Virus record (IMG/VR): IMGVR_UViG_3300046170_000428
Reading direction: 5' to 3' (one strand)
From: an uncultured virus (IMG/VR IMGVR_UViG_3300046170_000428)
Lineage: Duplodnaviria; Heunggongvirae; Uroviricota; Caudoviricetes
DNA length: 64,000 bases
Part shown: piece after piece, positions 2-57,813 of the stretch
Numbering within the stretch: position 1 is the stretch's first letter
How the letters are laid out: the number at the start of each line of letters is the position of its first letter
Notes under the pieces: generated by a model
Seen by the model: the letters and a program-made list of their open reading frames with translations, nothing else
Told to the model about the DNA's origin: nothing
Database searches by the model: none
Position numbers and translations under genes: made by a program

Positions 2-250
2 GCATATGAAGTTTTATCTGGTATGATAAAAAATATATCTGACGTAAACGACCGCTTAATGATATTAAATAAAGGTAAAAAAGAACTTGAGAAAAAGAAT
101 GAAACGACCGAAGTAAATAATACACAAAATAATTTCTACTTAGGTTCAACTGCAGACGTACAACGTTTGCTAAAAGGCGATTTAATAGATGTCACACGAA
201 CAGGCGGTGAAAGCGAGAGCGACTCGGGAGACGTATCTAGGGAATCCTAA
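2..250 (+). CDS. 16: terminase small subunit (gp16-like), 5'-truncated
   Basis: Frame is open from the window start (AYEVLSGMIK...); ends in NNFYLGSTADVQRLL; lies directly before the large terminase. Confidence 0.8.
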   Translation, partial: AYEVLSGMIKNISDVNDRLMILNKGKKELEKKNETTEVNNTQNNFYLGSTADVQRLLKGDLIDVTRTGGESESDSGDVSRES

Positions 251-1847
251 TGTTAAGCGCGATGGTGTTGCTGAACAATGGACTCAAGAGTCAATTCTTG
301 AATATAAAAAATGTATGGATAATCCCATATATTTTTCACAAAAATATATAAAGGTTATTTCACTTGATGAGGGTTTAGTACCGTTTGATCTGTATCCTTA
401 TCAACAAGAAATGTTTGGGAGATTCAATGAGCATAGGTTTAATATTATATTGGCTTGCAGACAATCAGGTAAATCCATATCGGTTTGTGCCTACTTGCTC
501 TGGTATGCGCTGTTTCATCCGGAAAAGACTGTGGCCATTCTCGCTAACAAAGCATCAACCGCAAGAGAAATGCTCTCCCGGATCACGCTTATGCTTGAAA
601 ACTTACCGTTCTTTTTACAAGCAGGAACAAAAGCTCTTAACAAAGGTTCACTTGAGTTTGGCAATAATTCTCGAATTATTACTGCTGCAACCACTGGTTC
701 TTCTATCCGTGGTCTTAGTATCAATTTGCTTTATCTCGATGAATTTGCATTCGTAGAAAAAGCTGCAGAATTTTATACTTCTACATATCCTGTTGTATCT
801 GCTGGTAAAGATACCAAAGTCATTATCACATCTACGGCAAATGGTATTGGTAATATGTTTTACAAGATTTGGGAAGGTGCAGTACAATCAGTTAATGAAT
901 TTACTCCATTTCGTGTTGATTGGTGGGATGTTCCAGGCCGTGATGAGGAATGGAAACAACAAACAATTAACAATACATCAAAATTGCAGTTCGATCAAGA
1001 ATTTGGTAATACGTTTTTCGGTACAGGTGATACCCTAATTAGTGCTGAAGCCCTTATGGAATTAAGAGCTAAACAGCCTAAAAGACATATTGAACAAGGT
1101 GATGGTTCTGTATACTCAGATCCAGAAAAAGGTAAAGAGTATATTATGTGTGTAGATGTTGGAAAGGGAAGAGGACAGGACTATTCTACATTTACTTTAA
1201 TCGATATTAGCGTAAAACCATTTGAACAGGTAGCTGTTTACCGTAACAATACTATTTCTCCATTACTCTTCCCTACTATTATATATAAGTATGCGAAATT
1301 ATACAATAATGCATATGTTATTGTAGAGTCAAATGATCAGGGTTCTCTAGTAGCAAACGGCTTATATCAAGAACTTGAATATGATAATGTGCATATGGAA
1401 TCTGCGGTAAAGGCAAATGCTATTGGTCAGGCTATGACTCGTAGAGTTAAAAGATTAGGTTGTTCTGGCTTAAAAGATCTTATTGAAACGAATAAACTTA
1501 AAATTTATGATGAACAAACTATCCTTGAAATATCTACATTTGTTGCAAAAGGTAATTCATATGAAGCCTCAGAAGGTAATAATGATGATTTAATCATGAA
1601 TTTAGTTATGTTTGGTTATTTTGCTCAAACACAATTCTTTAATGATATGACCGATATCAATCTAAAAGAAATGTTGTTTAAACAAAGAATGGCTGAAATT
1701 GAAGCTGATATTGTACCATTTGGTTGGGTAGATGATGGTTCTGAATGGATTAAATCAATTGAAGAAGAAGAAATTGTAAGAGCGGGTAATGAACCTGAAT
1801 CTCCAGATTGGCTTATTGATATGGAACAGCAAAACGACCGCTGGTAA
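189..1847 (+). CDS. 17: terminase large subunit (gp17)
   Basis: YLGNPN, Walker A RQSGKS, Walker B LYLDEFAF, nuclease DVGKGRGQDYS. Confidence 0.97.
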   Translation: MSHEQAVKARATRETYLGNPNVKRDGVAEQWTQESILEYKKCMDNPIYFSQKYIKVISLDEGLVPFDLYPYQQEMFGRFNEHRFNIILACRQSGKSISVCAYLLWYALFHPEKTVAILANKASTAREMLSRITLMLENLPFFLQAGTKALNKGSLEFGNNSRIITAATTGSSIRGLSINLLYLDEFAFVEKAAEFYTSTYPVVSAGKDTKVIITSTANGIGNMFYKIWEGAVQSVNEFTPFRVDWWDVPGRDEEWKQQTINNTSKLQFDQEFGNTFFGTGDTLISAEALMELRAKQPKRHIEQGDGSVYSDPEKGKEYIMCVDVGKGRGQDYSTFTLIDISVKPFEQVAVYRNNTISPLLFPTIIYKYAKLYNNAYVIVESNDQGSLVANGLYQELEYDNVHMESAVKANAIGQAMTRRVKRLGCSGLKDLIETNKLKIYDEQTILEISTFVAKGNSYEASEGNNDDLIMNLVMFGYFAQTQFFNDMTDINLKEMLFKQRMAEIEADIVPFGWVDDGSEWIKSIEEEEIVRAGNEPESPDWLIDMEQQNDRW

Positions 1848-9372: not shown

Positions 9373-9510
9373 ATGGCAAAACAATATCAAGTCACAGTTC
9401 ATGAACCTACATTTTCGAAAACAAATATAGGAAGAAAGCCTTCATTGTGTAAAATGAATAAACATAAAAGGCGTTCTTATAAGATGTACAGAGGACAGGG
9501 TAAAAAATAA
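9373..9510 (+). CDS. small basic protein (45 aa, ends KMYRGQGKK)
   Basis: AAGGA RBS; stop overlaps the gp3 start (TAATG); not in the ORF track. Confidence 0.75.
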   Translation: MAKQYQVTVHEPTFSKTNIGRKPSLCKMNKHKRRSYKMYRGQGKK

Positions 9511-10010
9511 TGGCAGAACTTACTACAAATTTAAATTACTTACAGCCTACTGGGTTTAAGGTATCAATCGACAGAGAAAATTATCCAAATCTAGAATTTT
9601 TCTGTCAAGGTGTATCGCATCCAGATATTACACTTGCTGCCGGAGAAATGCCATTTAGGAAGATTCGAAATATTCCCATTCCTGGTGGTGAATTAGATTT
9701 TGGCGAATTAACATTAACTACTATTGTCGATGAAGATATGAATGCGTACTCAGAAATGAATAGTTGGATGAGGCGTATTCTTGATAATCCTTTATTAGGT
9801 CCACTTGATAGAAGTGATACTGCTGTACCATCAACTGCTGATATTACGTTAGTAGTTTTAAATAGTCATAATAATAAAACGCGATCAATACGATATCAAG
9901 AATGTACACCTACTACTCTTGGTGGTATTGAATTCCAATCTACATCGGGTGGTACGGAATATTTAACATGCCAAATGTCATTTAGATTCCTTGATTTTGA
10001 ATTAATATAG
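9510..10010 (+). CDS. 3: tail completion/sheath stabiliser (gp3-like)
   Basis: NYLQPTGF, FFCQ, VDEDM; syntenic after gp23. Confidence 0.85.
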   Translation: MAELTTNLNYLQPTGFKVSIDRENYPNLEFFCQGVSHPDITLAAGEMPFRKIRNIPIPGGELDFGELTLTTIVDEDMNAYSEMNSWMRRILDNPLLGPLDRSDTAVPSTADITLVVLNSHNNKTRSIRYQECTPTTLGGIEFQSTSGGTEYLTCQMSFRFLDFELI

Positions 10011-17196: not shown

Positions 17197-18126
17197 ATGA
17201 CTTTTTTATGGGTCGAGAAATATCGACCACAAACAATCGAAGATTGCATATTATCAGTAGATCTTAAAACTACTTTTCATAAAATATTTCAATCTGGTGA
17301 TTTACCAAATATGCTGTTCAGTGGTACAGCCGGCACCGGTAAAACTACCGTTGCTAAAGCACTTTGTAATCTTATGAATCTAGATTGGATTATAATCAAC
17401 GGTTCTGAAGATGGCAATATCGATACCCTGCGTGGTAAAATTAAACAATTTGCTTCATCTATTTCGCTACAAGGTGGCGTTAAAGTTGTTATCTTAGACG
17501 AAGCAGATTATCTTAATCCACAGTCAACGCAACCGGCTCTTCGCGGTTTTATCGAAGAATTTTCAAATAATTGTAGATTCATTCTTACGTGTAATTTTAA
17601 GAATCGTATTATTCAACCATTACATTCTCGTTGCGGTGTATATGAGTTTAATACTTCTAAAAAAGACATGGCAATTCTCATGCAGCAAATGTTTGAGCGG
17701 TCATGTAGTATTCTTGATAAAGAAGGAGTTACTTATGATAAAAAAGACTTATTACCAATTATTTCAAAGCATGCGCCAGATTGGCGAAGAGTCCTCAATG
17801 AACTTCAAAGACGTGCTGTTTTGGGGAATATGGCTAGCGCTGTTTCTAGCTCTAGTGGTGGAACCATTGATCAATTGGTTACTCACTTAAAAGATAAAAA
17901 CTTTAAAGAAATGCGTAAGTGGGTTGTTAACAATATAGATACAGATGCAAGCGCGATATTTCGTGGTTTATACGATAATGCAAATACTTATATTGAGCCG
18001 CAATCAATTCCTCAATTGGTATTGATTCTTGCTGATTATCAATATAAACATGCATTTGTTGCAGACCATGAGCTGAATGTAGTTGCATGTTTAACGGAGG
18101 TTATGGCAAATGTCAAATTCAATTAA
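17197..18126 (+). CDS. 44: clamp loader large subunit (gp44)
   Basis: LWVEKYRP, GTAGTGKTT, DEAD; likely start is MTFLWVEKY. Confidence 0.95.
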   Translation: MTFLWVEKYRPQTIEDCILSVDLKTTFHKIFQSGDLPNMLFSGTAGTGKTTVAKALCNLMNLDWIIINGSEDGNIDTLRGKIKQFASSISLQGGVKVVILDEADYLNPQSTQPALRGFIEEFSNNCRFILTCNFKNRIIQPLHSRCGVYEFNTSKKDMAILMQQMFERSCSILDKEGVTYDKKDLLPIISKHAPDWRRVLNELQRRAVLGNMASAVSSSSGGTIDQLVTHLKDKNFKEMRKWVVNNIDTDASAIFRGLYDNANTYIEPQSIPQLVLILADYQYKHAFVADHELNVVACLTEVMANVKFN

Positions 18127-18409
18127 ATTAACGTTATATACTCAAGAAGATTGTTATTACTGCAACGAGATGAAAAAGAAACTCATAGAATGGGGCTATA
18201 CTTTCAGAGAGGTCAATGTAAGTTATGATTTATTCGCTAAAGAATTTTTAAAAAGTGAAGGTCATCGAACAGTTCCTCAGGTTTATTGGCATAATACGCA
18301 TTTAAATAAAATTTCAACATTAGAGCTTCAAAAAAGAGACATTGAAGCCGAACTTGATTATGACAATTATATCGGCGGAGTCGAAAATTGGAGTGTGAGT
18401 CGTAAATGA
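18110..18409 (+). CDS. glutaredoxin (NrdH-like)
   Basis: CYYC active site, TVPQ. Confidence 0.85.
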   Translation: MSNSIKLTLYTQEDCYYCNEMKKKLIEWGYTFREVNVSYDLFAKEFLKSEGHRTVPQVYWHNTHLNKISTLELQKRDIEAELDYDNYIGGVENWSVSRK

Positions 18410-20148: not shown

Positions 20149-20595
20149 ATGAATATAGACCAATTAAGAAAAGAACTCGAAGTTGATGAAGGAGTAAAGT
20201 ATGAAATATATAATGATCATCTTGGGTACCCTACTTTTGGGATTGGCCATCTGGTTATCGATACTGATCCAGAATATGGAGAAGAGGTTGGAACACCTGT
20301 CTCAGAAGATAGAGTCGCAGAGGCATTTGATAAAGATGTTAGAACAGTGATTTCAGATTGCGAAGTATTATATCCAGACTTTGATGAACTCCCAGAAGAA
20401 TGCCAACTAATCATTGCAAACATGATGTTTAATATGGGTCGACCAAGACTTAAAAAATTTAAAGGTATGAAGCGTGGAGTAGACTCTCGTGATTGGAATG
20501 CAGCTGCAGATGAAATGATTGATTCTGCTTGGTATAGACAAGTTCCAAATAGAGCTGGTAGACTTGTAAAAAGGATGAGAGCACTTAGTGATTAA
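20149..20595 (+). CDS. T4-type lysozyme (GH24)
   Basis: DEG..Y.DHLGYPTFGIGHL, NMMFNMG, WYRQVPNRA. Confidence 0.92.
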   Translation: MNIDQLRKELEVDEGVKYEIYNDHLGYPTFGIGHLVIDTDPEYGEEVGTPVSEDRVAEAFDKDVRTVISDCEVLYPDFDELPEECQLIIANMMFNMGRPRLKKFKGMKRGVDSRDWNAAADEMIDSAWYRQVPNRAGRLVKRMRALSD

Positions 20596-20893
20596 TATAA
20601 CAGAAAAAGCAAAAGACTATTTAACAGAAATGACGTGGGCTCAAGATAAAAAGTACGCGTTTCTTTCTGTTAATGGTGGCGGCTGTTCTGGATTTCAATA
20701 TAAATGGGACATGCTAGATGAACCAGTTGATGGACATTTAGTTGAAGATATTCTTTATATAGACAAAGTTGCAGAAATGTTTGTCATTGGCTGCACTGTA
20801 GATTATGTAACAGAATTCGGTGGTTCATATTTAAAAGTAATTAACCCAAATGCAGTTGCAAATTGCGGCTGCGGAGAAAGTTTTGCCATTTGA
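20588..20893 (+). CDS. IscA/HesB A-type Fe-S carrier
   Basis: GGGCSGFQY and NPNA..CGCGESF. Confidence 0.93.
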   Translation: MINITEKAKDYLTEMTWAQDKKYAFLSVNGGGCSGFQYKWDMLDEPVDGHLVEDILYIDKVAEMFVIGCTVDYVTEFGGSYLKVINPNAVANCGCGESFAI

Positions 20894-23511: not shown

Positions 23512-23928
23512 ATGAGTAAAAATTGGTTTCACGATATGGTAGTTATGCATCAAAAATTTGGTGTAAACAAATGGATGGATGAAGAAAAAGTTTCAAAAAA
23601 TTCTAGACTTAATGAATATATGAAATTTAGAATTGGTATGATGCAAGAAGAACTTGATGAAACAAAAGTTGCATTTGAAAATAAGAATGAAGAAGAAGTT
23701 GTTGATGGCATTATAGACTTATGTGTTTTTGCTATTGGCACATTAGAAGTATTTGGTGTTGATGCTAATAAAGCATGGGATCAAGTATATCATGCTAATA
23801 TTAGTAAAGAAGTTGGTATAAAAGAAGGTAGACCTAATCCGCTTGGATTACCAGATTTGGTAAAGCCTGAAGGTTGGGAAGGTCCATCACACGAGGGAAA
23901 TCATGGGAATATCTCTGACTCTTTTTAA
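23512..23928 (+). CDS. MazG/HisE-like dNTP pyrophosphohydrolase
   Basis: EELDE...EVVDGIID, ANISK, KPEGW. Confidence 0.8.
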   Translation: MSKNWFHDMVVMHQKFGVNKWMDEEKVSKNSRLNEYMKFRIGMMQEELDETKVAFENKNEEEVVDGIIDLCVFAIGTLEVFGVDANKAWDQVYHANISKEVGIKEGRPNPLGLPDLVKPEGWEGPSHEGNHGNISDSF

Positions 23929-26127: not shown

Positions 26128-26329
26128 AAAAGAAGCAAATAGATTATTTTATGCAATAAAGGGTCAAACTATTCCGTCAGATTGGTCCGAAAGTGATATT
26201 TGTAGAATGGTTGATTCATACACTCTAAGACTTTGGGGAAATAGTGAAAGAATGATTTACACTGAAGATAGATTTGAAAAAGCGTGGAAAGAAGTGTGTA
26301 CAAATGTGCAAAAACGTGGTATAATATAA
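26114..26329 (+). CDS. hypothetical protein
   Basis: Likely start MEISKKEA within ORF 26063..26329. Confidence 0.6.
   Translation: MEISKKEANRLFYAIKGQTIPSDWSESDICRMVDSYTLRLWGNSERMIYTEDRFEKAWKEVCTNVQKRGII
26297..26325 (+). promoter_or_regulatory. TGTACA-N17-TATAAT promoter heading the modification cluster
   Basis: Exact motif. Confidence 0.75.
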
Positions 26330-26349
26330 TGGTTAAGTCGGAGAAGAAT

Positions 26350-26673
26350 ATGAAAGAATCAGTTAAAGTCCTTAATGAGTGTATCGAATTACAACTTAAA
26401 AAATCAGATGACTATCAAAACAAAGAGTCAAATGTAACCCAAGCTATGCACTATCGTCGCGGTGTAGATAGTATTCACGATATTATTCAAGGTAAAATCT
26501 ATCGCGCACAATCTATTCTAGAAAGTAAAGGTGATCCTAACTTTGAATCGCTCGAAGATACTTACAAAGATATGATTAACTATGCATCATTTGCAGTATC
26601 TTATATGCGTGGTAAAATGGAAGGTCAAGATCCAAATCGTGATATGTATAATAAACCTAAAAGTAAAACATGA
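26350..26673 (+). CDS. DUF1599/nucleotide-modification-associated domain protein
   Basis: KKSDDY...K..R...ESLEDTYKDMINYA pattern; GGAG RBS. Confidence 0.7.
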   Translation: MKESVKVLNECIELQLKKSDDYQNKESNVTQAMHYRRGVDSIHDIIQGKIYRAQSILESKGDPNFESLEDTYKDMINYASFAVSYMRGKMEGQDPNRDMYNKPKSKT

Positions 26674-26873
26674 ACGTAAGAGAAAAAATAAAAGTTCGTA
26701 TGGATAGACTTCAGTTTTTTATGGAAAATAATGTACATTTAGAAAATCCAGATCAAGTTGAAGAACACATAAACACAGTAGCAAAATTTTGGCCTGCACT
26801 ATCAGATGAAGATAAAGATTATATTCATGGTGCACGTTTTGCTATTGAAGAAAAAATGCATTGGAAGCTATGA
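26670..26873 (+). CDS. hypothetical protein
   Basis: 67-aa coupled ORF. Confidence 0.65.
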   Translation: MNVREKIKVRMDRLQFFMENNVHLENPDQVEEHINTVAKFWPALSDEDKDYIHGARFAIEEKMHWKL

Positions 26874-27049
26874 CGAATATTAAACGTACATATGAAATTA
26901 TATTTCCAACTGGTAAAAAAGAGTTATGGAAAAATATTACCATTATGGAATTATTAAAAAGATATAATACTACGCCTAATATACAGGTTAAAGAAGTTAA
27001 TAAAAATATATTTAATTGGGAAAAAGAGGAAAATGATGAAAGTAAGTGA
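26861..27049 (+). CDS. hypothetical protein (paralogue of 13162..13389)
   Basis: RTYEIIFPTGKKELWKNIT. Confidence 0.65.
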   Translation: MEAMTNIKRTYEIIFPTGKKELWKNITIMELLKRYNTTPNIQVKEVNKNIFNWEKEENDESK

Positions 27050-27716
27050 TATTCGTAATTATTTTATTGAGGAACTAAAAAAAGAAAACTTTACAATAGA
27101 TAAAACTGGTCAAAAAACTATTGAAGTGATTGGTGCTTCTTTTCTTGCAGATGAACCATCAATATTCGGTAAACCAAGTGATGAATATATCAATCATGAA
27201 ATCATTTGGTATCGATCTCATAGTTGTAATATTAATGATATTTATGGTGATGATCGTGAACCACCTAAAGCTTGGCAATTAAGTGCTAATAAGTATGGTG
27301 AAATTAATTCAAACTATGGGTGTCTTATTAATTCTGATAAATATTATGGCCAATACGGTATGGCACTTGACGAGTTACTTTATAATAAAGATAGCCGTCG
27401 AGCCTCTATGATATATCAAAGGCCTTCAATATGGGTGGAGTATGAAGAAGATGGTAAGAACGATTTTATATGTACTAATGCCGTTACTTATTACATCCGC
27501 GATGGTGAATTACACGCAGTCGTACAAATGCGCTCAAACGATGTCGTGTTCGGATATAAAAATGACTATGCTTGGCAGCTTCATGTTCTAGAAGAATTAG
27601 TACACGATTATAATAGTTGCAAAACTGATACCTACGAAGAAGTAAAGCCTGGCGATATAACATGGCAAGTTCAAAATTTGCATGTGTATGAAAGGCATTT
27701 TCATCTTGTCAAATAA
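27033..27716 (+). CDS. thymidylate-synthase-fold dCMP hydroxymethylase (T4 gp42-like)
   Basis: INSNYG, DFICTN (catalytic Cys), QMRSNDVVFGYKNDYAWQ, NLHVYERHF. Confidence 0.85.
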   Translation: MMKVSDIRNYFIEELKKENFTIDKTGQKTIEVIGASFLADEPSIFGKPSDEYINHEIIWYRSHSCNINDIYGDDREPPKAWQLSANKYGEINSNYGCLINSDKYYGQYGMALDELLYNKDSRRASMIYQRPSIWVEYEEDGKNDFICTNAVTYYIRDGELHAVVQMRSNDVVFGYKNDYAWQLHVLEELVHDYNSCKTDTYEEVKPGDITWQVQNLHVYERHFHLVK

Positions 27717-28149
27717 ATGGGATAAAAGATTTTTAGATCTTGCAGAACATATTGCAACCTGGTCTAAAGATCCATCAAAAAAGATTGGTGCTGTTGCGGT
27801 AGGTGCTCAAGGGCAAATCCTAGCGCAAGGGTATAATGGGTTTCCTCGAGGTATAAATGATCTCGCATTTCGTTATGAAGACCGAGAGGAAAAATACAAA
27901 CTGGTAGTTCACGCAGAAATGAATGTCATTTATAATGCATCTTATAATGGTGTTTCCTTGAATGATTCGACTTTATATGTGTACGGACTACCAGTTTGTC
28001 ACGATTGTGCAAAAGGTATAATTCAAGTTGGAATAAAAAATGTTATGATGAGCAAAAAGGTTTTACCGATTGATAAAAGATGGGAAGAATCGTGGATAAC
28101 AACACAAAAATTATTTAAAGAATCAGGAATAAATTATGAATTCGCTTAA
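27682..28149 (+). CDS. dCMP deaminase
   Basis: WSKDPS, GYNGFPRG, HAEMN, PVCHDCAK. Confidence 0.93.
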   Translation: MCMKGIFILSNKWDKRFLDLAEHIATWSKDPSKKIGAVAVGAQGQILAQGYNGFPRGINDLAFRYEDREEKYKLVVHAEMNVIYNASYNGVSLNDSTLYVYGLPVCHDCAKGIIQVGIKNVMMSKKVLPIDKRWEESWITTQKLFKESGINYEFA

Positions 28150-29315
28150 CATTGAATTAACTGAATATTATGATGATTTTTTGCGATATTTTAATAAAGC
28201 AAAAGAACAACAATCAAAATGTAATGTTTCAATATATGAACCATATGGTATGATCCCTCACATGGAATCAAATATGGATGATGACTTGATGCATTATATT
28301 GAACTTTATGATGTTGTTGAAAGAAAATATGCAGGGTTTTCTCAGATTATGAATGACTGTTGGTCCGGTTGGACTGAAGATCATCCATATTGGAAAAAGA
28401 TGGAAGCTGGCAAAGCCACGTATCAAAGAGAAACAGTTGCTTGGAACTGGACTGGTAAACATAAAGATTTTGATTTACCAGAATGGTTATATCTTTTTAT
28501 TTTACATAGGGTAACTGGTTCAGCGATTAATTACGGTACAAAACCATCTGGCTATCACAATACTCTTTTATTTACTTTACATAAAGCTAAAACAATTGAA
28601 GAGATGGTTTGGTATATGAAAAAACATACAACACCATTTTATACTTCTGTGGGTTATCAATTTCCTAAATTTCCAAAACCTCAAGGTGATTATAAAAGAG
28701 GAGGAGATTATTATCTTGGAGAATATTTACCAAGATTTGCTCGTGAAATGGCAGAATGGTTACAGGCATCAAATGCTAGAAAAGATCTAAGAGAAATTGG
28801 TGAATGGATGGGACAATGGAATCAAAAGAATGGTTTAAATAGATACACATTTCAATATGCCGCTGTAATTGCTGATATTGCCGATTGGTATCCTCAATAT
28901 GTTAACAGAGAATCGCATTTTTATTATGGAACAAATGCAGTAGAATGTATTAGTTATCTTGCTAAAAATACTAATAAAATGAAAAGAGAACAGTTTCTTG
29001 ATGCTGTTATGACTAAGATTTATGAAGACACTGGTTCAGTGCCGTATAACGCAGAAGATGTTTGTTGTGATTATATTCGTTGGGTAGAAAATTATGTACG
29101 ACCTGGTGCACATTACTCTCATGTTGATTTAGATAAAGTATGGTCATCAAGTAATATTAAAAATCATCCATATGGCAGACAAAAAGGCAATGTTAGATCT
29201 CGGTTTAGTTGAAACATTTAATAATATTAAACATCATCCATCTGACGATACTATTATTTCTGCAGCTGGATTAACAGTCGAACAATATAAAGAACAATGT
29301 AGGACATTACATTAA
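28136..29315 (+). CDS. amino-acid:DNA transferase-like (aGPT-Pplase, HhH glycosylase fold); one indel near 29185
   Basis: FQYAAVIAD...YYGTNA...NAEDVCCDYIRW resembles aGPT-Pplase C-terminal motifs; the corrected frame ends RTLH* overlapping the next ATG. Confidence 0.6.
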
Positions 29316-30256
29316 TGTCACACAATAAACATATAATTGATAAAATTAATAAAGATGTAGAAATACTTAGACTTGAAGGAGTGGCTAATCGCCATGACGC
29401 AAAAAAGTATTATTTAGAATTAGCACAGGGATGGGAAGATCCAAATCCTGATCCGGTAGTGGAGGAATATGATGGAGTTAGAGTTGTACGAGATGATCTC
29501 ATTACAGGTACAAAAGTACGAGGTGGAGATTGTCTTATTTCTAGTCTTAACCAGTCTACTCTCGTTTATGTTCAACCTCGGACGGGTCTTGCAGGCGTAT
29601 CACTCTTGGACGTGGCAAGGCGATACGGAAAACGTGTTAGACTTTTTATGCCATCTTCCAAGAGAATCAGTCACCACCAAGCTTGTTGTATTGAACGTGG
29701 TGCTGAATATGATTTTCATCGTATTGCTGCTATGCCTAATCTCAATAAAATAGCAAAAGACTGGGCAGATAAACAAGAAGATGCATATTTTATTCCACTT
29801 GGTTTAAAACATGAAAGAGTCACAGCTGGAATAGTAAAGGCAGCATCAAAAATAAAAGAACCTGAAGAAGTATGGACAGTAATATCAACTGGAGTACTTC
29901 ATCGAGCATTACAAATTGCATGGCCAAATGCTAAATTTTATGCGGTTGCGGTTGCAAGAAATATGAAAGCCGGTGAAATTGGACATGATAATATTATTTC
30001 TGCACCTGAAGCGTTTACACAGCCAACAAAAGAATTGCCACCATTTCCAAGTATTGACACATATGATGCAAAGGCATGGCGATATATACCTAAACGATCA
30101 GGTAGAGATATTTTATTTTGGAACGTAGGTACCGAACCAGTATTAAATGATGAAACTATATACGATCGAATCGATTCATATAGAGATTGGAGTAAAAATG
30201 AAAAAAGTATTACTAACGGGTCTAGGACCGATATCGAACAAAATTCATTCGCATAA
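29315..30256 (+). CDS. PLP-dependent enzyme (fold type II)
   Basis: VVRDDL.GTKVRG (PLP lysine), ISTGVL loop, YDAKAW, LFWNV. Confidence 0.8.
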   Translation: MSHNKHIIDKINKDVEILRLEGVANRHDAKKYYLELAQGWEDPNPDPVVEEYDGVRVVRDDLITGTKVRGGDCLISSLNQSTLVYVQPRTGLAGVSLLDVARRYGKRVRLFMPSSKRISHHQACCIERGAEYDFHRIAAMPNLNKIAKDWADKQEDAYFIPLGLKHERVTAGIVKAASKIKEPEEVWTVISTGVLHRALQIAWPNAKFYAVAVARNMKAGEIGHDNIISAPEAFTQPTKELPPFPSIDTYDAKAWRYIPKRSGRDILFWNVGTEPVLNDETIYDRIDSYRDWSKNEKSITNGSRTDIEQNSFA

Positions 30257-31223
30257 AGCCGCACAAGGAATAATTTATGCAGATCAATTAAAAAATGCTG
30301 GATATGATGTAACTATTAATTTAGTTAATAGCAAAATATATGATTATTCTTCTTATGAAGAAGTTTACATATATCATGGTTCTGACTGGGGTGGTAGTCT
30401 TAATTTATTTGGTGGGATTCAAGCCTATACAAATACAGACTTTGTAAAAGCACTTTCTGAATATAAAGGCACTGTTAAATCCATATTAATAGAATTTCCT
30501 GACTATGCTAAACTATTTCAAGATAGATTAACAAAAGCAAATTTAACATGGGATGTTGATTGGGATAATTTGTCGGCAATGACAAAAGCAGAAGTTATAG
30601 ATCCGAATAAAATCAAATTTTATAAGAATGTCTCATTTGGAGACAGCCACGCAATTAGTATGTATCGTCCAGGATGGGAAAATATATCTGTTCCGTTTTC
30701 AACTTTACATGGTTCAATTAATCGTGGATTTGAAACATTTATTTGTGAAAAGGCAGAATATGATAATATCGAAACATATTTTGGTAACATTGATATTAGG
30801 CATCATCTTTGTAGATTTGATGATCCAATTTTAGAAGCACAAAAATTAGCAAAAAGATATGTTGATGAGATCACTAGAATCGGTGATAAATATAACGCGA
30901 AGGTAAAAGTATGGGAACCTTTACCTATTGAAAATGAATCACGTAAAGTGCCAAAAACTGGTTGGTACAAAGGCACTCCTTTCTATGGTACATGGCAACA
31001 AAGAACAGATGTACGCAATGCATTTATTGATGCTCTTAATTGCGATGTATATAAATGGACAGAAAATTTAGTAAATGAAAAAGGTGAACTAGATTTTCAA
31101 TATATGGAAAAACCGCAATCAATTCATTTATCAAGAGCTGCATATCCTCATTGGACCGGCAAAGAATGGACTGATGATAAAATAGAAAAAACTCCTACAT
31201 TAGATAGCTTTTTTGGAGATTAG
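30198..31223 (+). CDS. two-domain protein with SGNH-hydrolase-like C-terminal domain
   Basis: FGDSHA, FGNIDIRHH, SIHL; C-terminal TLDSFF resembles the gp43 clamp-binding tail. Confidence 0.6.
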   Translation: MKKVLLTGLGPISNKIHSHKAAQGIIYADQLKNAGYDVTINLVNSKIYDYSSYEEVYIYHGSDWGGSLNLFGGIQAYTNTDFVKALSEYKGTVKSILIEFPDYAKLFQDRLTKANLTWDVDWDNLSAMTKAEVIDPNKIKFYKNVSFGDSHAISMYRPGWENISVPFSTLHGSINRGFETFICEKAEYDNIETYFGNIDIRHHLCRFDDPILEAQKLAKRYVDEITRIGDKYNAKVKVWEPLPIENESRKVPKTGWYKGTPFYGTWQQRTDVRNAFIDALNCDVYKWTENLVNEKGELDFQYMEKPQSIHLSRAAYPHWTGKEWTDDKIEKTPTLDSFFGD

Positions 31224-31224
31224 C

Positions 31225-31971
31225 ATGAAAATAGTAATTACAGGAACTGGTGGATTTATTGGAGGTCATCTTCAGAAAGCACTAGAAAAAGATGGTCATT
31301 ATATTATACCGTATGATCGTAAAACAGGAAAAGACATTCGTGATTTTAATATAGACGTTAATGTTGATATGGTAATCCATCTTGCAGCGGATGCAGACGT
31401 GAGACGAAGCATTCAATATCCAGATGAATATTGGGAAAATAATGTAGAACCAACAACAAGAATTCAAAGAATATGTTATGGTTTAAATATTCCACTCCTT
31501 TATGCATCTTCTTCTTGTATTCATAATTGGTCATTGTCACCTTATGGTACAAGTAAAAAAGTAAATGAAGAAACAGCATTTGAGGGTCAAACAGCATTAA
31601 GATTCACTACTGTTTATGGCGATGGTGCAAGAGAATCAATGTTAATTGGAAAATTACTCAATGGATCTATTCCATATCTTACAAGACATACAAGAGATTT
31701 TATTCATGTAGATGATGTTATTTCTGCCATTAAAACTATTATGGATACTCCTGTTGAAAAAAGAAAAAGAGCATATGACATCGGAACAGGTAAAGGTGTA
31801 ATTGTTAACGAATTAGGAATCCTTGCAGGTTGGGAAGGAATTGAAGTTACAGATGGAGATCCATGTGAGGCTCAAAATAATACAGCAGATAATAGTGAAT
31901 TAAAAATATTAGGTTGGAAACCTACAATTGATATTGAACAATATATTATTAAACATACTATTCCGCATTAA
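31225..31971 (+). CDS. NAD-dependent epimerase/dehydratase
   Basis: TGTGGFIG, HLAA, YASSS, YGTSK, RDFIHVDD. Confidence 0.92.
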   Translation: MKIVITGTGGFIGGHLQKALEKDGHYIIPYDRKTGKDIRDFNIDVNVDMVIHLAADADVRRSIQYPDEYWENNVEPTTRIQRICYGLNIPLLYASSSCIHNWSLSPYGTSKKVNEETAFEGQTALRFTTVYGDGARESMLIGKLLNGSIPYLTRHTRDFIHVDDVISAIKTIMDTPVEKRKRAYDIGTGKGVIVNELGILAGWEGIEVTDGDPCEAQNNTADNSELKILGWKPTIDIEQYIIKHTIPH

Positions 31972-31975
31972 AAGA

Positions 31976-32004
31976 TGTACAAATATATGAATATATGTTA
32001 TAAT
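31976..32004 (+). promoter_or_regulatory. TGTACA-N17-TATAAT promoter
   Basis: Exact motif upstream of uvsX. Confidence 0.8.
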
Positions 32005-35178: not shown

Positions 35179-35276
35179 GCAATAAAGAAACTCACGACGA
35201 TCCAGAACCAGAAAGATATTATGATTGGATGCTATGGAAATTGCGTCAACTAGAAAAGGAAAAAGGAAATGAATGA
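35175..35276 (+). CDS. small hypothetical protein (33 aa)
   Basis: MSNKETHDDPEPERYYDWMLWKLRQLEKEKGNE; ATGA overlap with gp41; GGAG RBS. Confidence 0.55.
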   Translation: MSNKETHDDPEPERYYDWMLWKLRQLEKEKGNE

Positions 35277-35934
35277 TGCTAGGATTATCTCATATTCACA
35301 CACACCCAAAGACACATTATACGTTGGAGAAAACATCCAAGACCTCATTGCGTATTGCGCCCGTGTCTCCAATCCATCAAACCAAAATAACACCGAAACG
35401 TCCGAAAAACTATTACGATATCTCATCAAACACAAACACTGGTCACCTTTCGAAATGGTATCTGCTTGCCTAGAAATTACAACAACTCGTGATATTGCTA
35501 GACAAATTTTAAGACATCGTAGTTTTAGTTTTCAAGAATTTAGTCAAAGATATGCAAATCCAGTAGAGGAGCTACATTTTGTTACAAGAGAAGCGAGAAT
35601 GCAAGACGATAAGAATAGACAAAATAGTATTGAAGTTGATGATGAAACTTTCCAACTCGATTGGGAAAGAGATCAAAAACGAGCCATATGGATGTGTAAA
35701 CAAGTCTACCAAGATGCAATCAAAAAAGGAATAGCAAAAGAACAGGCAAGAGCCGTTTTACCAGAAGGGTTAACCGAATCTCGCTTGTATATGAATGGAT
35801 CTCTTCGCTCTTGGATTCATTATGTTGAATTAAGATCTGGACCAGAAACTCAAAAAGAACATAGAGACATTGCTATTGCATGCGCTAAAGCAATTGAACC
35901 TATCTTTCCAATGATTACTGAATTTGTCGTATGA
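35269..35934 (+). CDS. thyX: flavin-dependent thymidylate synthase ThyX
   Basis: HWSPFE, RQILRHRSFSFQEFSQRY, EQARAVLP. Confidence 0.95.
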   Translation: MNDARIISYSHTPKDTLYVGENIQDLIAYCARVSNPSNQNNTETSEKLLRYLIKHKHWSPFEMVSACLEITTTRDIARQILRHRSFSFQEFSQRYANPVEELHFVTREARMQDDKNRQNSIEVDDETFQLDWERDQKRAIWMCKQVYQDAIKKGIAKEQARAVLPEGLTESRLYMNGSLRSWIHYVELRSGPETQKEHRDIAIACAKAIEPIFPMITEFVV

Positions 35935-41794: not shown

Positions 41795-42016
41795 GTGGAA
41801 GAAAAAAAGAACGGTATTCAAGTTAAGAATGAACATAATGAATTTGAATTAGCTTTAAGATTTTTAGGAAATGAATTAATAGCTATAAAACTTGCTGCAA
41901 CAAATTTTAGTGGTAAACTTATCGTATGGAGTATCTTACTTCTTTTCGTAAGTTTTATGATTATGGAAGTTTTTGGACTTGCTGAAATGTTTGGATATGG
42001 GATGGAAGATGAATAA
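41795..42016 (+). CDS. small membrane protein
   Basis: NEFELALRFLGNELIA plus a TM segment; AGGAG RBS. Confidence 0.7.
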   Translation: MEEKKNGIQVKNEHNEFELALRFLGNELIAIKLAATNFSGKLIVWSILLLFVSFMIMEVFGLAEMFGYGMEDE

Positions 42017-42512
42017 ATGGAAAGTTGAAGAAATAGAATGGCATGAAATATATCCGCTCTGGTCACAATTTTTATGGCCTGGTCGACCAAGTATTAAACC
42101 ATATACGCCTATGCTTAATGCTACAGATAAAGATATGAATATTCATAAATTAGCTAGAAGTAATTTTGCGTTTTATGCTGGTGTATTTTTTGGTGTAAAA
42201 ACAGTAGAGGGTGATATAGTAGGAGTTAATTCTGGTCATCAATGTAGTAATACACTTTTTAGATCAAGAGGCTTATATGTTCGACCAGAAGTTACAGGAC
42301 GTGGAATTGCACAGGCGTTATTAACACATACTATAGAATTTGCACGTGAAAATGGTTTTAAAAAAATTTGGTCATATCCTCGTGAAAAGGCTATACCAAC
42401 TTATAAAGCAGTTGGTTATGATTGTGGAAAAGCCGAAATACATGAAGCATATGAAAAAGAAGATGGCACTATTGTAAAAAGAGATAATGCATATGCTGAA
42501 TTAATTTTATAA
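42009..42512 (+). CDS. GNAT-family N-acetyltransferase
   Basis: RSRGLYV.PE..GRGIAQALL (motif A), WSYPRE.A...Y. Confidence 0.85.
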   Translation: MNKWKVEEIEWHEIYPLWSQFLWPGRPSIKPYTPMLNATDKDMNIHKLARSNFAFYAGVFFGVKTVEGDIVGVNSGHQCSNTLFRSRGLYVRPEVTGRGIAQALLTHTIEFARENGFKKIWSYPREKAIPTYKAVGYDCGKAEIHEAYEKEDGTIVKRDNAYAELIL

Positions 42513-46618: not shown

Positions 46619-47850
46619 TTAATTTTAATGAATTTATAACAGAACAAAAAAATACTCATATGACTCATATTGAGGATAAAGGTTCTCTATGGTGGAGTCA
46701 ATGGCGCTCGTGAAGGCAATCATTGCCCTTCGCGCTTTACGTGACATGTTAGCTGGTGAAAAAGATGGCAATGTTTCAGTAAAATGGGATGGAGCTCCCA
46801 GCAATTTTTGCAGGTATTGATCCATCAGATGGTCAATTCTTTGTTGCTAAAAAAGGTATATTTAATAAAAATCCAAAGGTATATAAAACAGATAAAGATG
46901 TTAATGCTGATACTTCTGGTGATCTAAATAAAAAAATGAAACTAGCTCTTAAACTTTTACCAGAGCTTGGAATTAAAGGAGTAATTCAAGGTGATTTCGT
47001 ATTTGGTCCAGGTGATGTTAAAACCTCTCGAATCAAGGGGAAGTCGTATATTACGTTTCACCCCAATACAATTGTTTATGCGATACCAGTTGGCACGGAC
47101 TTGGCCAAGCAAGTTAAGGCAGCAAAGATTGGAATTGTATGGCATACGGAGTACAAAGGATCAACATTCGAAACGATGAAAGCATCATATAACTATGATG
47201 CAAGTAGATTAAAAAAGTCAAGAAATGTTTGGTCACAAGATGCTCAACTTAAAGATGCGAACTGCCGCTACAATGACTGCAGCCGAAACACAAGAAGTAA
47301 ATGAATATTTAAGTTTAGCTGGTAGGAACATTTAATAAAATTGCTGGTAGTGCGTTAAGACAATTAGAAAAGAATCAAGTATTAGCACAGCATATTGAAA
47401 CTCATGGTAATTCGTTTGTTCGAAAAGGGTGAATTGCCACCAGATCCAAAAGCAAGAGTAAGAGATTTGCTTAAATGGATTAAAAATAAATATCAGAAAG
47501 AAATTGATAAAAGATCCACCGAAGCTGGTAAAGCAACACAACAATCTAAACTCGATGCTTTATTAGATTTCTTTTCAGAAGAGAATAAAACAAGTTTAGA
47601 AATGATATTTGAATTGCAAAAAGCCATCGTTCTGGCGAAACTAAAACTTATAAATAGATTAAACAAAGTTTCAAAAGTGGGTTCATTTTTGAAAACAAAA
47701 AATGGTTATCGAGTTACAGGCCAAGAAGGTTATGTAGCAATCGATAAGCTTGGTGGTGATGCAGTGAAAATTGTTGACCGTATGGAATTCTCATATGCCA
47801 ACTTTTCACCCGATATATTAAAAGGATGGGATACGCCAGGGAGAAGTTAA
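46615..47850 (+). CDS. DUF6267-like protein with ligase-superfamily motifs; broken by several indels
   Basis: Reconstructed MINFNEFITEQKNTHMTHIED...VKWDGAP...IQGD...EGYVAID...VKIVDRMEFS. Confidence 0.7.
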
Positions 47851-48496: not shown

Positions 48497-49645
48497 TGAT
48501 ATCTAGTTTTAAAAGTTATTTAATTGAAGAGGAAAAAGTAGTTTATTTTACTTTTCGGTAGAATGAATCCACCGACTATTGGGCATGAGAAACTTTTAAA
48601 TAAATTAGCATCTGCTTCAAAGGTCAAATCCATATCAGAGTTTATTTATCTCAATCAAGCGATCCAAAAAAGAATCCATTAGATTACAAATCTAAAGTTA
48701 AATATGCTCGTAAAATGTTTCCAAAGCATGCTAGATCAATTATGATTGACTACTAAAGTTAAAAATGCACTTGATATTGCTACAAAGCTATATGATGAAG
48801 GATTTAAAAAAATTGTAATGGTTGTTGGTTCTGATAGAACTACTGAATTTGAAACACTATTGAATAAATATAACGGTAAACAAGGTAGACATGGTCTATA
48901 TAATTTTCAAGGTATTGATGTAATATCAGCAGGTGATAGAGATCCTGATGCTGAAGGCGCGTCAGGAATGTCAGCTTCTAAAATGCGTAAAGCTGCATCA
49001 GAAGATGACTTTCCAACATTTGCTCAAGGCTTACCAAAGACTATAAAGAATAATGATGCTAAAGCGATTTATAATGATGTTCGTAAAGGTATGGGATTAA
49101 AAGAACAAAAAGAATTTAAAAATCATGTTCAATTTGAACCTGTCTCAGCCGTCCGTGAAGCTTTCCGTGAAGGGATGTTTAAAGTTGGAGAAGAAGTTGT
49201 TTTAACTCGAAAAGGTATTGTTGGAAAAATTCAAGTACTTGGTACTAATTACGTTATCGTAGAATCAAAAGGTGAAAAGTGGAGAGCCTGGCCTGATGAT
49301 ATTTCAAAAGTAGATCCAAATTATAATCCTATGGTTCCAGAAGAATATAAGTATGAGTTTGGAACTCCTGAGGCAACTAAGTTTGCAAAGAAAATGACAC
49401 CAGGACAAAGTGAAGCAAGACAAGATCCTGATATTGGTGACAGAAAAGGTGCACAACCTGCTAATTATTTTAAAGGAATTAAATCAAAAGCTACTAAAGC
49501 AAAGAGAGATGCTCAGTTTAAAAAGCAAGCAAAGATGGATGATGACGATCCGGCAGCATATAAACCTGCCCCGGGTGATGCAAGTGCAAAAACAAAACCG
49601 AGTAAACATACAAAGAAATTTAAACAGATGTTTGGGGACGACTAA
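48496..49645 (+). CDS. HIGH-family cytidylyl/nucleotidyltransferase with C-terminal extension; N-part frameshifted
   Basis: Reconstructed MISSFKSYLIEE...FTFGRMNPPTIGH; VVGSDR; GMSASKMR. Confidence 0.8.
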
Positions 49646-56450: not shown

Positions 56451-56647
56451 TAGAAGCATTTATAATAAGTTTTATTGCATCATTTATGGTAGATAATATT
56501 GAATTTTTAAATATTAAAAAACAACAGGAAGAAGCTGGATATGTATGGGTTTATAAGCCCAAAGCTAGAGATCCTAATTTACCTGCAGCATTTCCTATTA
56601 AAAAACCAGATGGTTCAGAAAGAGTATTATGGGTTCTTGAAAAATAA
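56447..56647 (+). CDS. hypothetical protein
   Basis: 66-aa coupled ORF. Confidence 0.6.
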   Translation: MIEAFIISFIASFMVDNIEFLNIKKQQEEAGYVWVYKPKARDPNLPAAFPIKKPDGSERVLWVLEK

Positions 56648-57813
56648 TGTTGCCACCTATTCCGGGTACGACATTTAATTGTTCAGCTAAGCACGGATAT
56701 CTTTGTATTAAACCCATGGGTAATGTATTGCCATGTTGCCGATGGAAAGACTTTGAACCTCCATTAGATATGTTCGAGACTTTTGAAGATATTTTAGATT
56801 ATTATCAAAGGATTATTCATACTCCAAGTAAAGTTTGGCCACAGGGTTGTTCCTCATGTCATCGTGATGCTTCTAGTTCTACATGGAGTATGATGAACAC
56901 TATAAACAAAACGATTGAACGAAGTGGTAACACTATTCAGTATTTAGAAATCGGTTTTGATAATGTTTGTAATATGAACTGTGTTATGTGTAGTCCTCAA
57001 TATAGCAGTCGATGGGATAAGATTGTTAAAGATAATAAAGAATTTTTAAGTAAATATAATTTAAAAGAATATAATAGTCCACCTTCAATATATGATAATA
57101 TTATGCGTTTACTAGAAAGTAGCGATTTATCGCGACTTAATACAATTAGAATTATGGGTGGCGAACCCATGTATAGTAAAGCTTCATTAAAATTTTTAGA
57201 ATGGTTTATGGACAAAGATGTAAGTAATATTGAATTAATGTTTAATACTAATGCTACAGTATTTCCTACGAAATTCGTAGACTTATTTAAAAGATTTAAA
57301 TGCGTCATTCCAAAAACTTCGATTGATAGTGTTTATGAAATCGCCGAATGGGGAAGAAATAGTCCCATACCTTTTAAAAAAATTGAAGAAGTGGTTGGTT
57401 CGTGGAATGAATATGCAAGACAAAATAATAATGTTAAATTAACATGCTTTAGTACAATTACTTTAGCAAATATAGAACATCTTGGTGCTTTGTCAGAATG
57501 GTTAAATAATTATGATCAATATGTAATTAGACAAATAGGACTTGTTCACGCGAATAATTACATAACACCTTTAGCACTTTCAAGAAAAAACAGACAGCTA
57601 TTATGGCAAGAACAATATACTCGTTATGATGATATGAAGCTATTTGTAAATTATGAAACATTTTTAAATGCACATCAACTAGAAGGTTATCCAGTAAAAA
57701 ATATTATTGATTATATTGAATGGTGGGATACATTAAATAATAATAAATTTAAAGATCTATCACCAAAAGTATGGAAAGCGATAAATAATCTTTATAAAAA
57801 GGAGAACAAATAA
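56647..57813 (+). CDS. radical SAM protein with N-terminal SPASM/twitch-like Cys domain
   Basis: CNMNCVMC, GGEP, NTNAT; N-terminal LPCC...CSSC. Confidence 0.88.
   Translation: MLPPIPGTTFNCSAKHGYLCIKPMGNVLPCCRWKDFEPPLDMFETFEDILDYYQRIIHTPSKVWPQGCSSCHRDASSSTWSMMNTINKTIERSGNTIQYLEIGFDNVCNMNCVMCSPQYSSRWDKIVKDNKEFLSKYNLKEYNSPPSIYDNIMRLLESSDLSRLNTIRIMGGEPMYSKASLKFLEWFMDKDVSNIELMFNTNATVFPTKFVDLFKRFKCVIPKTSIDSVYEIAEWGRNSPIPFKKIEEVVGSWNEYARQNNNVKLTCFSTITLANIEHLGALSEWLNNYDQYVIRQIGLVHANNYITPLALSRKNRQLLWQEQYTRYDDMKLFVNYETFLNAHQLEGYPVKNIIDYIEWWDTLNNNKFKDLSPKVWKAINNLYKKENK

Follow-up and report, generated by a model that had tools for sequence, protein, structure and literature searches.

What becomes of cytosine in the DNA of a virus that carries, in one packed run of genes, a T4-type dCMP hydroxymethylase beside counterparts of the enzymes that attach amino acids to thymidine? 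The question is raised by positions 26297-31971 of a 64,000-nucleotide stretch of DNA from an uncultured caudovirus (IMG/VR record IMGVR_UViG_3300046170_000428), called the window below; feature coordinates are window positions unless a related locus (L) is named. The amino-acid-derived DNA hypermodifications characterised in the published work consulted are all thymidine derivatives made via a 5-hydroxymethyluracil (5hmU) DNA kinase (PMC8989533, PMC11472151). The operon in the window is, on balance, probably a set of genes for post-replicative hypermodification of the type performed by an amino-acid:DNA transferase (AADT) and a pyridoxal phosphate (PLP)-dependent enzyme, built on 5-hydroxymethylcytosine (5hmC). 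The ground for this reading lies at the level of homology (the identity of the gp42 orthologue, the protein folds, the relation to M6 gp52, a fusion of the proteins named P8 and P6, and synteny), and from it we infer the substrate, the order of steps, an acyl activation and the product. The preliminary description of this DNA had proposed such a hybrid toolkit, with AADT-like and PLP enzymes set on a gp42-type hydroxymethylase, and at the level of homology and linkage the proposal survived all tests run.

All genes named in that description were found again, at approximately the same coordinates, in one packed run on the + strand:

26297..26325, + strand: promoter-like site heading the operon, TGTACAAA-N14-TGGTATAAT (motif count)
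26329..26673, + strand: DUF1599 protein, "nucleotide modification associated domain 1" (PF07659, E 4.5e-7, above cut-off; phrog_1485)
26670-26873 and 26861-27049, + strand: two small overlapping open reading frames (ORFs; from the ORF list)
27033..27716, + strand: dCMP hydroxymethylase, T4 gp42 orthologue (PDB match and identity ranking)
27682..28149, + strand: dCMP deaminase, T4 cd-like (PF00383, 1.3e-18; phrog_174, 3.8e-43)
28136..29314, + strand: P6, helical protein resembling helix-hairpin-helix (HhH) glycosylases, 393 codons (structure model, invariant Glu309-x3-Cys313)
29315..30256, + strand: fold-type-II PLP enzyme of the M6 gp52/ViI gp226 family (hhalign, phrog_7093)
30198..31223, + strand: P8, with a Rossmann-like N-domain (~1-135) and an SGNH esterase/acyltransferase C-domain (~135-320) (model)
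31213..31971, + strand: short SDR NDP-sugar epimerase/dehydratase (PF01370, 1.4e-24; phrog_540)
31976..32004, + strand: next promoter-like site, before uvsX, at the end of the unit (motif count)

Neighbouring genes overlap by 4, 13, 17, 35 and 14 bases, then meet at TAATG, and then overlap by 59 bases. The ATG of the DUF1599 gene at 26329 comes after the first promoter-like site. The underlying motif, TGTACA-N17-TATAAT, occurs at 16 sites in the window with at most one mismatch (15 of them exact) against 1.2 expected, and none of 100 shuffles of the window attained that number. Its fuller, phage-specific consensus is TGTACAAA-N14-TG(G/T)TATAAT, in which the extended -10 TG is usual. Fifteen of the 16 sites lie on the + strand, and those compared with the ORF list precede gene starts. 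Since the sites at 26297 and 31976 flank the run and none lies between them, the run, epimerase gene included, seems to form a single transcription unit, and the earlier label "promoter-headed" is justified. The two small ORFs have no family match, and tblastn found counterparts of them only in the closest related locus (L003).

The hydroxymethylase and the target base

The thymidylate synthase (TS) homologue matches T4 dCMP hydroxymethylase (1b49_A) over its full length (E 2.7e-74; residues 2-226 on 6-225). Its motif RSNDVVFGYKNDYAWQ lines up with T4 RSNDVVFGFRNDYAWQ, DFICTN with T4 DFMCTN, and KNDYAWQ with T4 RNDYAWQ, which reads RNNYAWQ in the D179N mutant 6l18. The protein keeps the catalytic Cys (T4 C148), the cytosine-specifying Asp (T4 D179, the position of E. 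coli N177) and, three positions before the Cys, an acidic residue (Asp) at the position of E. coli L143. Equivalents of N177 and L143 are the diagnostic positions in Lee et al. 2026 (PMC13326640). Because RB69-type homologues share both diagnostic residues yet make 5-hydroxy-dCMP instead (PMC13326640), the clade of the window protein was checked as well, by identity ranking rather than by a tree. Among 1199 matching records, identity is 56% to gp42 of T4/T2, 46% to gp42 of Aeromonas phage 31 and 27% to RB69-like proteins. By its sequence the protein thus belongs to the clade that makes 5-hydroxymethyl-dCMP (5hm-dCMP), not to that of the flavin-dependent 5-hydroxy-dCMP synthases, and it is assigned as a gp42-type dCMP hydroxymethylase with 5hm-dCMP as predicted product. 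The T4 gp42 signature with Asp at the dCMP-specifying position, as first read from the letters of the window, is borne out by the 1b49 alignment and the 56% identity.

The deaminase and the DUF1599 protein, together with two genes outside the run, round out a T4-like nucleotide set:

23512..23928, + strand: MazG/PRA-PH-type nucleotide pyrophosphohydrolase (PF01503, E 4.1e-9; phrog_671)
35269-35934: ThyX (PF02511, 3e-43), as previously annotated

How constant this set is can be read from 44 IMG/VR loci found with P0001, a protein 92% identical to the P6 of the window. Those with a P6 identity of at least 63% form group A (29 loci) and the others group B (15 loci); group A counts cover only loci that extend far enough in the relevant direction. 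Upstream of P6 in group A, gp42 is present in 19 of 21 loci and the DUF1599 gene, which adjoins it, likewise in 19 of 21. The MazG gene lies upstream of the operon yet is syntenic, being found in 16 of the 18 loci with at least 4.5 kb of upstream sequence. It is a candidate dCTPase; one family, phrog_18404, matches both the DUF1599 and the MazG gene. No dNMP kinase was found within the window.

The dCMP deaminase, directly downstream of gp42, gives rise to a different view of the target. It could turn 5hm-dCMP into 5hm-dUMP, so that the AADT-like protein and the PLP enzyme would make a thymidine-type hypermodification on 5hmU, as the preliminary description had also suggested; the characterised AADTs and gp52-type enzymes all use 5hmU derivatives (PMC8989533). 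Such a target is nonetheless very unlikely. Of 21 related clusters only 11 have the deaminase, while gp42 is found in 19 of 21, ordinary dTMP supply, as in T4, accounts for both ThyX and the deaminase, and P6 is remote from the thymidine-specific AADT clade. Nor was a 5hmU DNA kinase found: PF18748 has no match among the Pfam-scanned ORFs of the window (structural and replication genes were scanned by PHROGs only), in agreement with the earlier remark that none is recognisable there, and neither a relative of 163.7 kb (91% complete) nor Aeromonas phage 31, whose genome is complete, has a match to it. The positive control, M6, is matched at E 1.1e-19.

P6, the PLP enzyme and P8

P6 belongs to a large family: in public metagenomes, searched at E up to 0.001, it comprises 917 clusters when grouped at 90% identity, and there are 143 at 50% identity. 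No family of Pfam, PHROG or NCBIfam matches P6, and searches of PDB sequences, by phmmer and then with a 36-sequence profile, gave nothing relevant. Among 50,697 phage records there was no match to P6 by tblastn and none to the whole cluster by megablast. The structure of P0001, modelled from the 36-sequence alignment (pLDDT 92.3), gave only weak Ogg-type glycosylase matches in Foldseek (best E 0.14). Compared with 48,161 solved chains, the P6 model has as its top match PaMx11 gp46/PUGT (8z2m_A; Z 9.2, below the ~13 advised for helical proteins; rmsd 4.1; 209 aligned), followed in rows 2-13 by DUF2419 proteins, which stand second and third (Z 8.0 and 7.8), and HhH-GPD glycosylases. PUGT, a 5-phosphomethyl-dU glycinyltransferase whose structure was solved on double-stranded DNA (PMC11472151), is the only solved amino-acid:DNA transferase, and its own authors obtained a Z of only ~6 between it and glycosylases (PMC11472151).

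The likeness extends to the presumed catalytic residues. All 36 aligned members of the P6 family have E309 and C313, spaced as are E243 and C247 of PaMx11 gp46 in an alignment of seven AADTs. The motif, E-x3-C-x-aromatic, is also present in PaMx11 gp46, in M6 gp55 (PF18723) and in P6b, a 329-residue paralogue of P6 in related loci (hhalign probability 92.7%). From the offset of 66 between the ranges aligned by VIA (13..324 and 8..258), and from these range offsets only, C313 would fall on C247. The characterised AADTs need both residues, and mutation of the Cys or the Glu abolishes the activity of M6 gp51 and ViI gp247 (PMC8989533).

Profile searches give a thinner thread. Neither the P6 of the window nor P0001 matches PF18724 (ADDT) or PF18723 (HMUDK_hel). 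Among further family members, P0171 reaches PF18724 at E 0.00099 (19.3 bits, cut-off 26.2) over the motif-bearing C-terminal part, and P0196 reaches PF18723 at E 0.01, below threshold; such sub-threshold bridges were seen in 2 of 34 further members and 2 of 70 overall. An hhalign comparison of P0171 with the AADT profile was not significant and aligned a different stretch. Among Atlas proteins that a language model places near P0001, PF18723 is present, in one cluster together with PF18724. P6 is accordingly a candidate for a new and very divergent clade of the AADT/HMUDK_hel superfamily that falls outside the Pfam definition, and it likely works like an AADT. For the earlier AADT-like label this means that the nearest solved fold and the Glu-x3-Cys pair speak in its favour, whereas membership by Pfam or profile does not; of the search by hidden Markov models and structure suggested at the time, the first part was sub-threshold at best and the second gave the PUGT match, at a Z under the advised value.

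The P6 gene of the window is itself interrupted. As read, the ORF stops at 29212; there is one extra G at 29186, beyond which the +1 frame runs to a TAA at 29312-29314, and relatives of 386-398 residues extend past the stop of the window P6. The extra G is missing in L003 and in all four seawater runs compared (4 studies), whose contigs carry two linked substitutions and hence represent a neighbouring strain. The frame break is private to the window record, as a mutation or an assembly error, and is positioned after the conserved core.

The next gene encodes a homologue of M6 gp52, with an hhalign probability of 97.6% (E 3.1e-12, 205 columns) and aligned blocks that place TKVRG on SKIRG, PFPS..YDAKAWRY on PFPC..YDLKAWKW and FWNVG on FWNIG. 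It also matches phrog_7093 (2.3e-40), with PALP at 19.7 bits, below cut-off; its profile reaches cysteine synthase 9nld at E 0.0053, and the single sequence has no match among PDB sequences. K67, invariant in 16 sequences and aligned on the Lys of gp52 SKIRG, is the predicted PLP-binding lysine, a role suggested by the fold-II motif S-x-K-D-R. The initial assignment to fold-type-II PLP enzymes is in this way upheld by the gp52 homology and K67. In M6 and ViI, decarboxylation by gp52 and gp226 respectively is the step that completes 5-NedU and 5-NeOmdU on DNA (PMC8989533), and the protein of the window is, from its sequence, predicted to be a decarboxylase of amino-acid:nucleobase conjugates. 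A gp52-like PALP domain (40.6 bits, above cut-off) also occurs in gp1 of Erythrobacter phage vB_EliS_R6L (807 residues; L002:3843-6263), where it is joined to an N6/N4 DNA methylase, an arrangement that fits action on DNA.

That arrangement bears on a second alternative, in which the substrates of P6, the PLP enzyme and P8 are free nucleotides, be it 5hm-dCMP, 5hm-dCTP or a product of salvage, so that a modified monomer is made ahead of replication or modified nucleotides are recycled. The DUF2419 queuine-salvage enzymes, second and third among the structural matches of P6, use monomers, a 5hmC carbamoyltransferase also took 5hmdCTP (PMC8670742), and the operon is surrounded by genes of nucleotide metabolism. 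This alternative is unlikely all the same, since the best structural match of P6, which shares its Glu-x3-Cys, is an enzyme solved on double-stranded DNA (PMC11472151), the M6 gp52 relatives use DNA-borne conjugates (PMC8989533), and the PLP domain is found fused to a DNA methylase.

P8 probably starts at 30198, the second Met, according to the alignment with ORF233c of Aeromonas phage 31. Its model (pLDDT 90.4) contains an SGNH domain with 50 Foldseek matches at E at most 0.001, headed by the sialate O-acetylesterase 6xpg (E 1.4e-6). In VIA, 2hsj_A is matched with Z 13.2 (rmsd 2.6, 162 aligned) and 59 chains reach a Z of at least 8, the peptidoglycan O-acetyltransferases PatB and OatA among them. 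Invariant in 22 sequences are G148 D149 S150 H151, N197 (in GNID) and H310, from which the Ser of block I (GDS), the Asn of block III and the His of block V are assigned by motif pattern. The fold found by both programs and the invariant Ser, Asn and His sustain the first description of the protein as SGNH-like. A P8 profile against PDB sequences gave nothing useful.

What ties P8 to P6 is gene fusion. Seven metagenomic proteins of 639-790 residues (P0144, P0149, P0175, P0193, P0206, P0207 and P0224) unite the two, with the P8 domain ahead of the P6 domain, and no other single link in the cluster is as strong. In group A, P8 lies downstream of P6 in 18 of 18 loci, the PLP gene in 15 of 18 and the epimerase gene in 1 of 18; genetically, no other protein of the cluster is tied to P6 as tightly as the SGNH protein. 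The preliminary description had noted neither this partnership nor the frame break in P6, nor that P6 falls outside the AADT family as Pfam defines it. Among cultured phages the P8 domain occurs in 43 records (38 from Aeromonas, 3 from Tenacibaculum and 2 from Stenotrophomonas), none of which matches the P6 half of the fusion query.

It could also be supposed that the phage goes no further than plain 5hmC and that P6, the PLP enzyme and P8 stand together without a common function, P6 being for example a glycosylase of DNA repair, the PLP enzyme a part of amino-acid metabolism and P8 an esterase acting on carbohydrates. All three folds include ordinary members (Ogg and AlkA glycosylases, cysteine synthase, sialate esterases), and marine phages carry many metabolic genes (PMC7029224). 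The fusion proteins and the 18 of 18 linkage tell against a chance neighbourhood, as do the specific homology to M6 gp52 over metabolic PALP enzymes and the invariant Glu-x3-Cys, and the supposition is rather improbable.

A sugar on 5hmC is a further alternative, and a highly improbable one. Here the epimerase would make an NDP-sugar and P8 would transfer it by means of a Rossmann domain that faintly resembles the N-terminus of T4 beta-glucosyltransferase. The epimerase is co-transcribed in the window, P8 and its family have weak matches to T4-Gluco-transf (E 0.0062, 16.7 bits, cut-off 27, at the N-terminus) and MGDG_synth (E 0.00084, below cut-off), and the Aeromonas phages that bear P8 are without known glucosyltransferases (PMC2993671). 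The assignment of the epimerase is sound, resting on PF01370 together with GxxGxxG as GTGGFIG and YxxxK as YGTSK. It is found in only one of 18 relatives and is probably an accessory, not a conserved member of the cluster. Furthermore, the catalytic-looking half of P8 is an SGNH domain and not a GT-B C-domain, all glycosyltransferase-like Pfam matches remain below cut-off, the Atlas offered no usable match to the N-terminal domain of P8, and no glycosyltransferase family was detected when the ORFs of the cluster itself were scanned with Pfam and PHROGs. Of the "amino- or sugar-substituted cytosine" originally envisaged, the amino arm is retained and the sugar arm is not.

Which gene comes after P8 differs from locus to locus: the epimerase gene in the window and L003, a SPASM-type radical S-adenosylmethionine (SAM) protein in L009 and L010, and a gene resembling C5-cytosine methylases in L023 (12354-13562) and L046 (7452-8681), where gp42 is also present. 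A methylase of that kind would be odd if C5 is already substituted.

The proposed pathway and further genes of the window

For the hypermodification of 5hmC in this phage, read as a marine T4-like myovirus, two stages may be envisaged. Before replication, as in T4, the MazG-type pyrophosphohydrolase, with the DUF1599 protein, would supply dCMP, which the gp42 orthologue would convert to 5hm-dCMP for phosphorylation and incorporation into DNA; the deaminase and ThyX would sustain ordinary dTMP synthesis. After replication, P6 would act as a base-flipping, HhH-glycosylase-like enzyme in partnership with P8. In the thymidine systems it is the kinase that makes the leaving group, and some 5hmU kinases carry an HMUDK_hel domain (Pfam family description). 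Here an SGNH domain holds the kinase's architectural place beside a helical domain, and P8 is for this reason proposed to activate the hydroxymethyl group: by O-acylation it would create a leaving group in the place of the 5hmU kinase. Cys313 of P6 would then attack C6; with the loss of the leaving group an exocyclic methylene would form, to which an amino acid would add. Finally, the gp52-type PLP enzyme would decarboxylate the appended amino acid and leave an amine-bearing side chain. As the operon contains no isomerase, a ViI-like route would be the simplest, from an O-linked serine to an aminoethoxymethyl group.

These steps do not share the standing of the general reading. Acyl activation by P8, taken alone, is a doubtful step. 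Equally tentative is the fully specified route, kinase-independent, in which SGNH-catalysed O-acylation of 5hmC and a new Cys-dependent clade of glycosylase-like DNA transferases, joined to the SGNH enzyme by fusion or partnership, lead to the installation and decarboxylation of an amino acid, and cytosine is replaced by a cationic base such as 5-(2-aminoethoxy)methylcytosine in a globally abundant marine T4-like lineage.

Several observations weigh against the pathway. With respect to P6, the frame is shifted in the window record itself; the structural match to PUGT may reflect a common helical arrangement; none of the 36 aligned members matches PF18724 or PF18723 at E at most 0.1; and hhalign gives probabilities of only 0.4% to M6 gp51, 0.35% to a seven-sequence AADT profile and 1.9% to M6 gp55. 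HhH-like relatives such as DUF2419 work on free nucleotides, and the action of P6 on DNA therefore remains a proposal. In P8, the position three residues ahead of H310, where the DxxH block of SGNH enzymes has its Asp, is occupied by Q or R and is not conserved, and no published precedent was found for an SGNH enzyme acting on DNA. At the level of gene clusters, the PLP gene is missing in 3 of 18 relatives, and P6b, present in 20 of 26 group A loci, is absent from the window. The 15 loci of group B have P6 and P6b without gp42, P8 or PLP in their flanks. In that group (among L029-L045, e.g., L045:7166-10138), P6 and P6b adjoin an HhH-GPD family protein; all of these loci are fragments, and the TS family was not found in five group B contigs that are at most 31% complete.

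The gene content of the window, according to PHROG and Pfam scans, is that of a T4-like myovirus. It includes terminase, sheath, portal, major head protein, UvsY, a gp55-type sigma factor, gp46/47, clamp and loader, as well as a family-B polymerase, UvsX, a gp41-type helicase, ThyX, ribonucleotide reductase and PhoH. Nearly all genes lie on the + strand, the G+C content is ~33%, and the stretch is present in seawater metagenomes from several studies. Promoter-like sites lie, for example, at 14113, 16157, 20907, 23460, 25327, 26297, 31976, 36142, 41462, 42541, 42783, 58300, 61898 and 63887.

Far from the operon there is one gene that may possibly be a distant accessory of it:

56647..57813, + strand: SPASM/twitch radical SAM protein, N-terminal (NF033640, 1.4e-49)

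Its product is 23% identical (E 5e-10) to the in-cluster radical SAM proteins of L009 and L010 and shows no similarity to M6 gp53. The gene abuts that of an SNase-fold nuclease (57813-58247). The EndoII-like nuclease mentioned in the preliminary description was not recovered: the genes concerned encode this SNase-fold protein and a SegE-like GIY-YIG endonuclease (60898-61302). The latter is one of four further genes of the window, the others being a second tail-tube paralogue (9510-10010), a glutaredoxin (18110-18409) and an IscA-like Fe-S assembly protein (20588-20893). A GNAT acetyltransferase (41973-42512; PF00583, 5.7e-11) is encoded 10 kb from the cluster. The thymidine modification of PaMx11 is finished by a GNAT (PMC8989533), and a link of the window gene to the cluster is conceivable.

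DUF6267 is split over two ORFs, which match PF19782 at positions 49-202 and 264-373. The ORFs at 46789-47304, 47395-47850 and 48746-49645 (the two DUF6267 parts and a cytidylyltransferase-like one) match separate parts of the 764-position phrog_455. Here a gene may have been split or interrupted, or the record may contain further indel errors.

Significance and comparison with known systems

No AADT/PLP-type or SGNH-type pathway on 5hmC was found in the literature searched, a search that most subscription journals lay outside; the papers that came nearest to an AADT on 5hmC dealt, by their titles and abstracts, with thymidine or T-dioxygenases. If the reading is true, amino-acid hypermodification chemistry would extend from thymidine to cytosine, a hydroxymethyl base would have a second way of being activated, without a kinase, and an amino-acid-derived cationic cytosine would be a modification class not described before. 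Three "hypothetical" families, of 917, 924 and 2048 clusters (90% identity, public metagenomes), would gain a testable function. In marine viromes, DNA of this kind could distort the results of sequencing, restriction analysis and methylation calling, and it would be relevant to defence against phages, and to their counter-defence, in the ocean.

The closest parallels are the thymidine pathways of M6, ViI and PaMx11, which comprise a 5-HMUDK kinase, an AADT/aGPT-Pplase2, a PLP decarboxylase and, in some cases, a radical SAM isomerase. Shared with the window are a TS-family hydroxymethylase, an HhH-like protein with Glu-x3-Cys and a gp52-family PLP enzyme; paralogous helical proteins (P6 and P6b) occur in most relatives of the window cluster and a radical SAM protein in some. 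The differences concern the base and its activation. The window has a gp42 orthologue, predicted to be specific for cytosine, instead of a dUMP hydroxymethylase, and an SGNH protein fused or linked to the helical protein where a P-loop 5hmU kinase was not found; in addition, P6 is not detected by the PF18724 or PF18723 models.

With the 5hmC pathway of T4 the operon has in common the gp42 orthologue, a cd-type deaminase, the T4-like replication genes and a probable removal of dCTP by a pyrophosphohydrolase. T4 differs in its alpha- and beta-glucosyltransferases, to which the window cluster offers only the sub-threshold match of the P8 N-terminus, and in having td where the window has ThyX and a gp56-type dCTPase where a MazG-type enzyme would serve here.

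Two other cytosine systems are comparable in part. In the 5hmC carbamoyltransferase system described by MetaGPA from metaviromes, which yields 5-carbamoyloxymethylcytosine (PMC8670742), the enzyme that modifies the hydroxyl of 5hmC is likewise accompanied by a TS homologue, a PRA-PH pyrophosphohydrolase and a dCMP deaminase; the window has another set of enzymes, without a carbamoyltransferase domain, and a C-O or C-N substitution would be expected of it in place of carbamoylation. The arabinosylation of 5-hydroxycytosine in RB69/DLP3 (PMC13326640) is again a case of a T4-like phage whose TS homologue has both diagnostic residues, with sugar-nucleotide genes nearby. It is set apart by the TS identity of only 27%, and the window lacks GT-B arabinosyltransferases and arabinose-5-P isomerase.

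Lastly, ORF233c of the Aeromonas phages 31/44RR (795 residues; L001:5001-7388) resembles P8 in its N-terminal 335 residues (30% identity, E 6e-44) and continues with a C-terminal part of 460 residues that has a weak HMUDK_hel match (E 0.00091-0.0036) and, by BLASTP and hhalign, no similarity to P6. ORF225c of Aeromonas phage 25 (L056:4001-5047) is a P8-like domain alone, located after two genes "not conserved in 44RR"; these two, p227nc and p228nc, gave nothing against P6 or the C-terminal part of ORF233c. A gp52-type PLP match is absent from these Aeromonas phages, all three matching phage records being from other phages. In a 2010 report, phages 44RR, 31 and 25 are noted to have genes 42 and 56 and no glucosyltransferase (PMC2993671). 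Three phages with P8 homologues are thus the very ones that were noted for a gp42 without a glucosyltransferase, and the reading proposed for the window suggests what they might do with their 5hmC.

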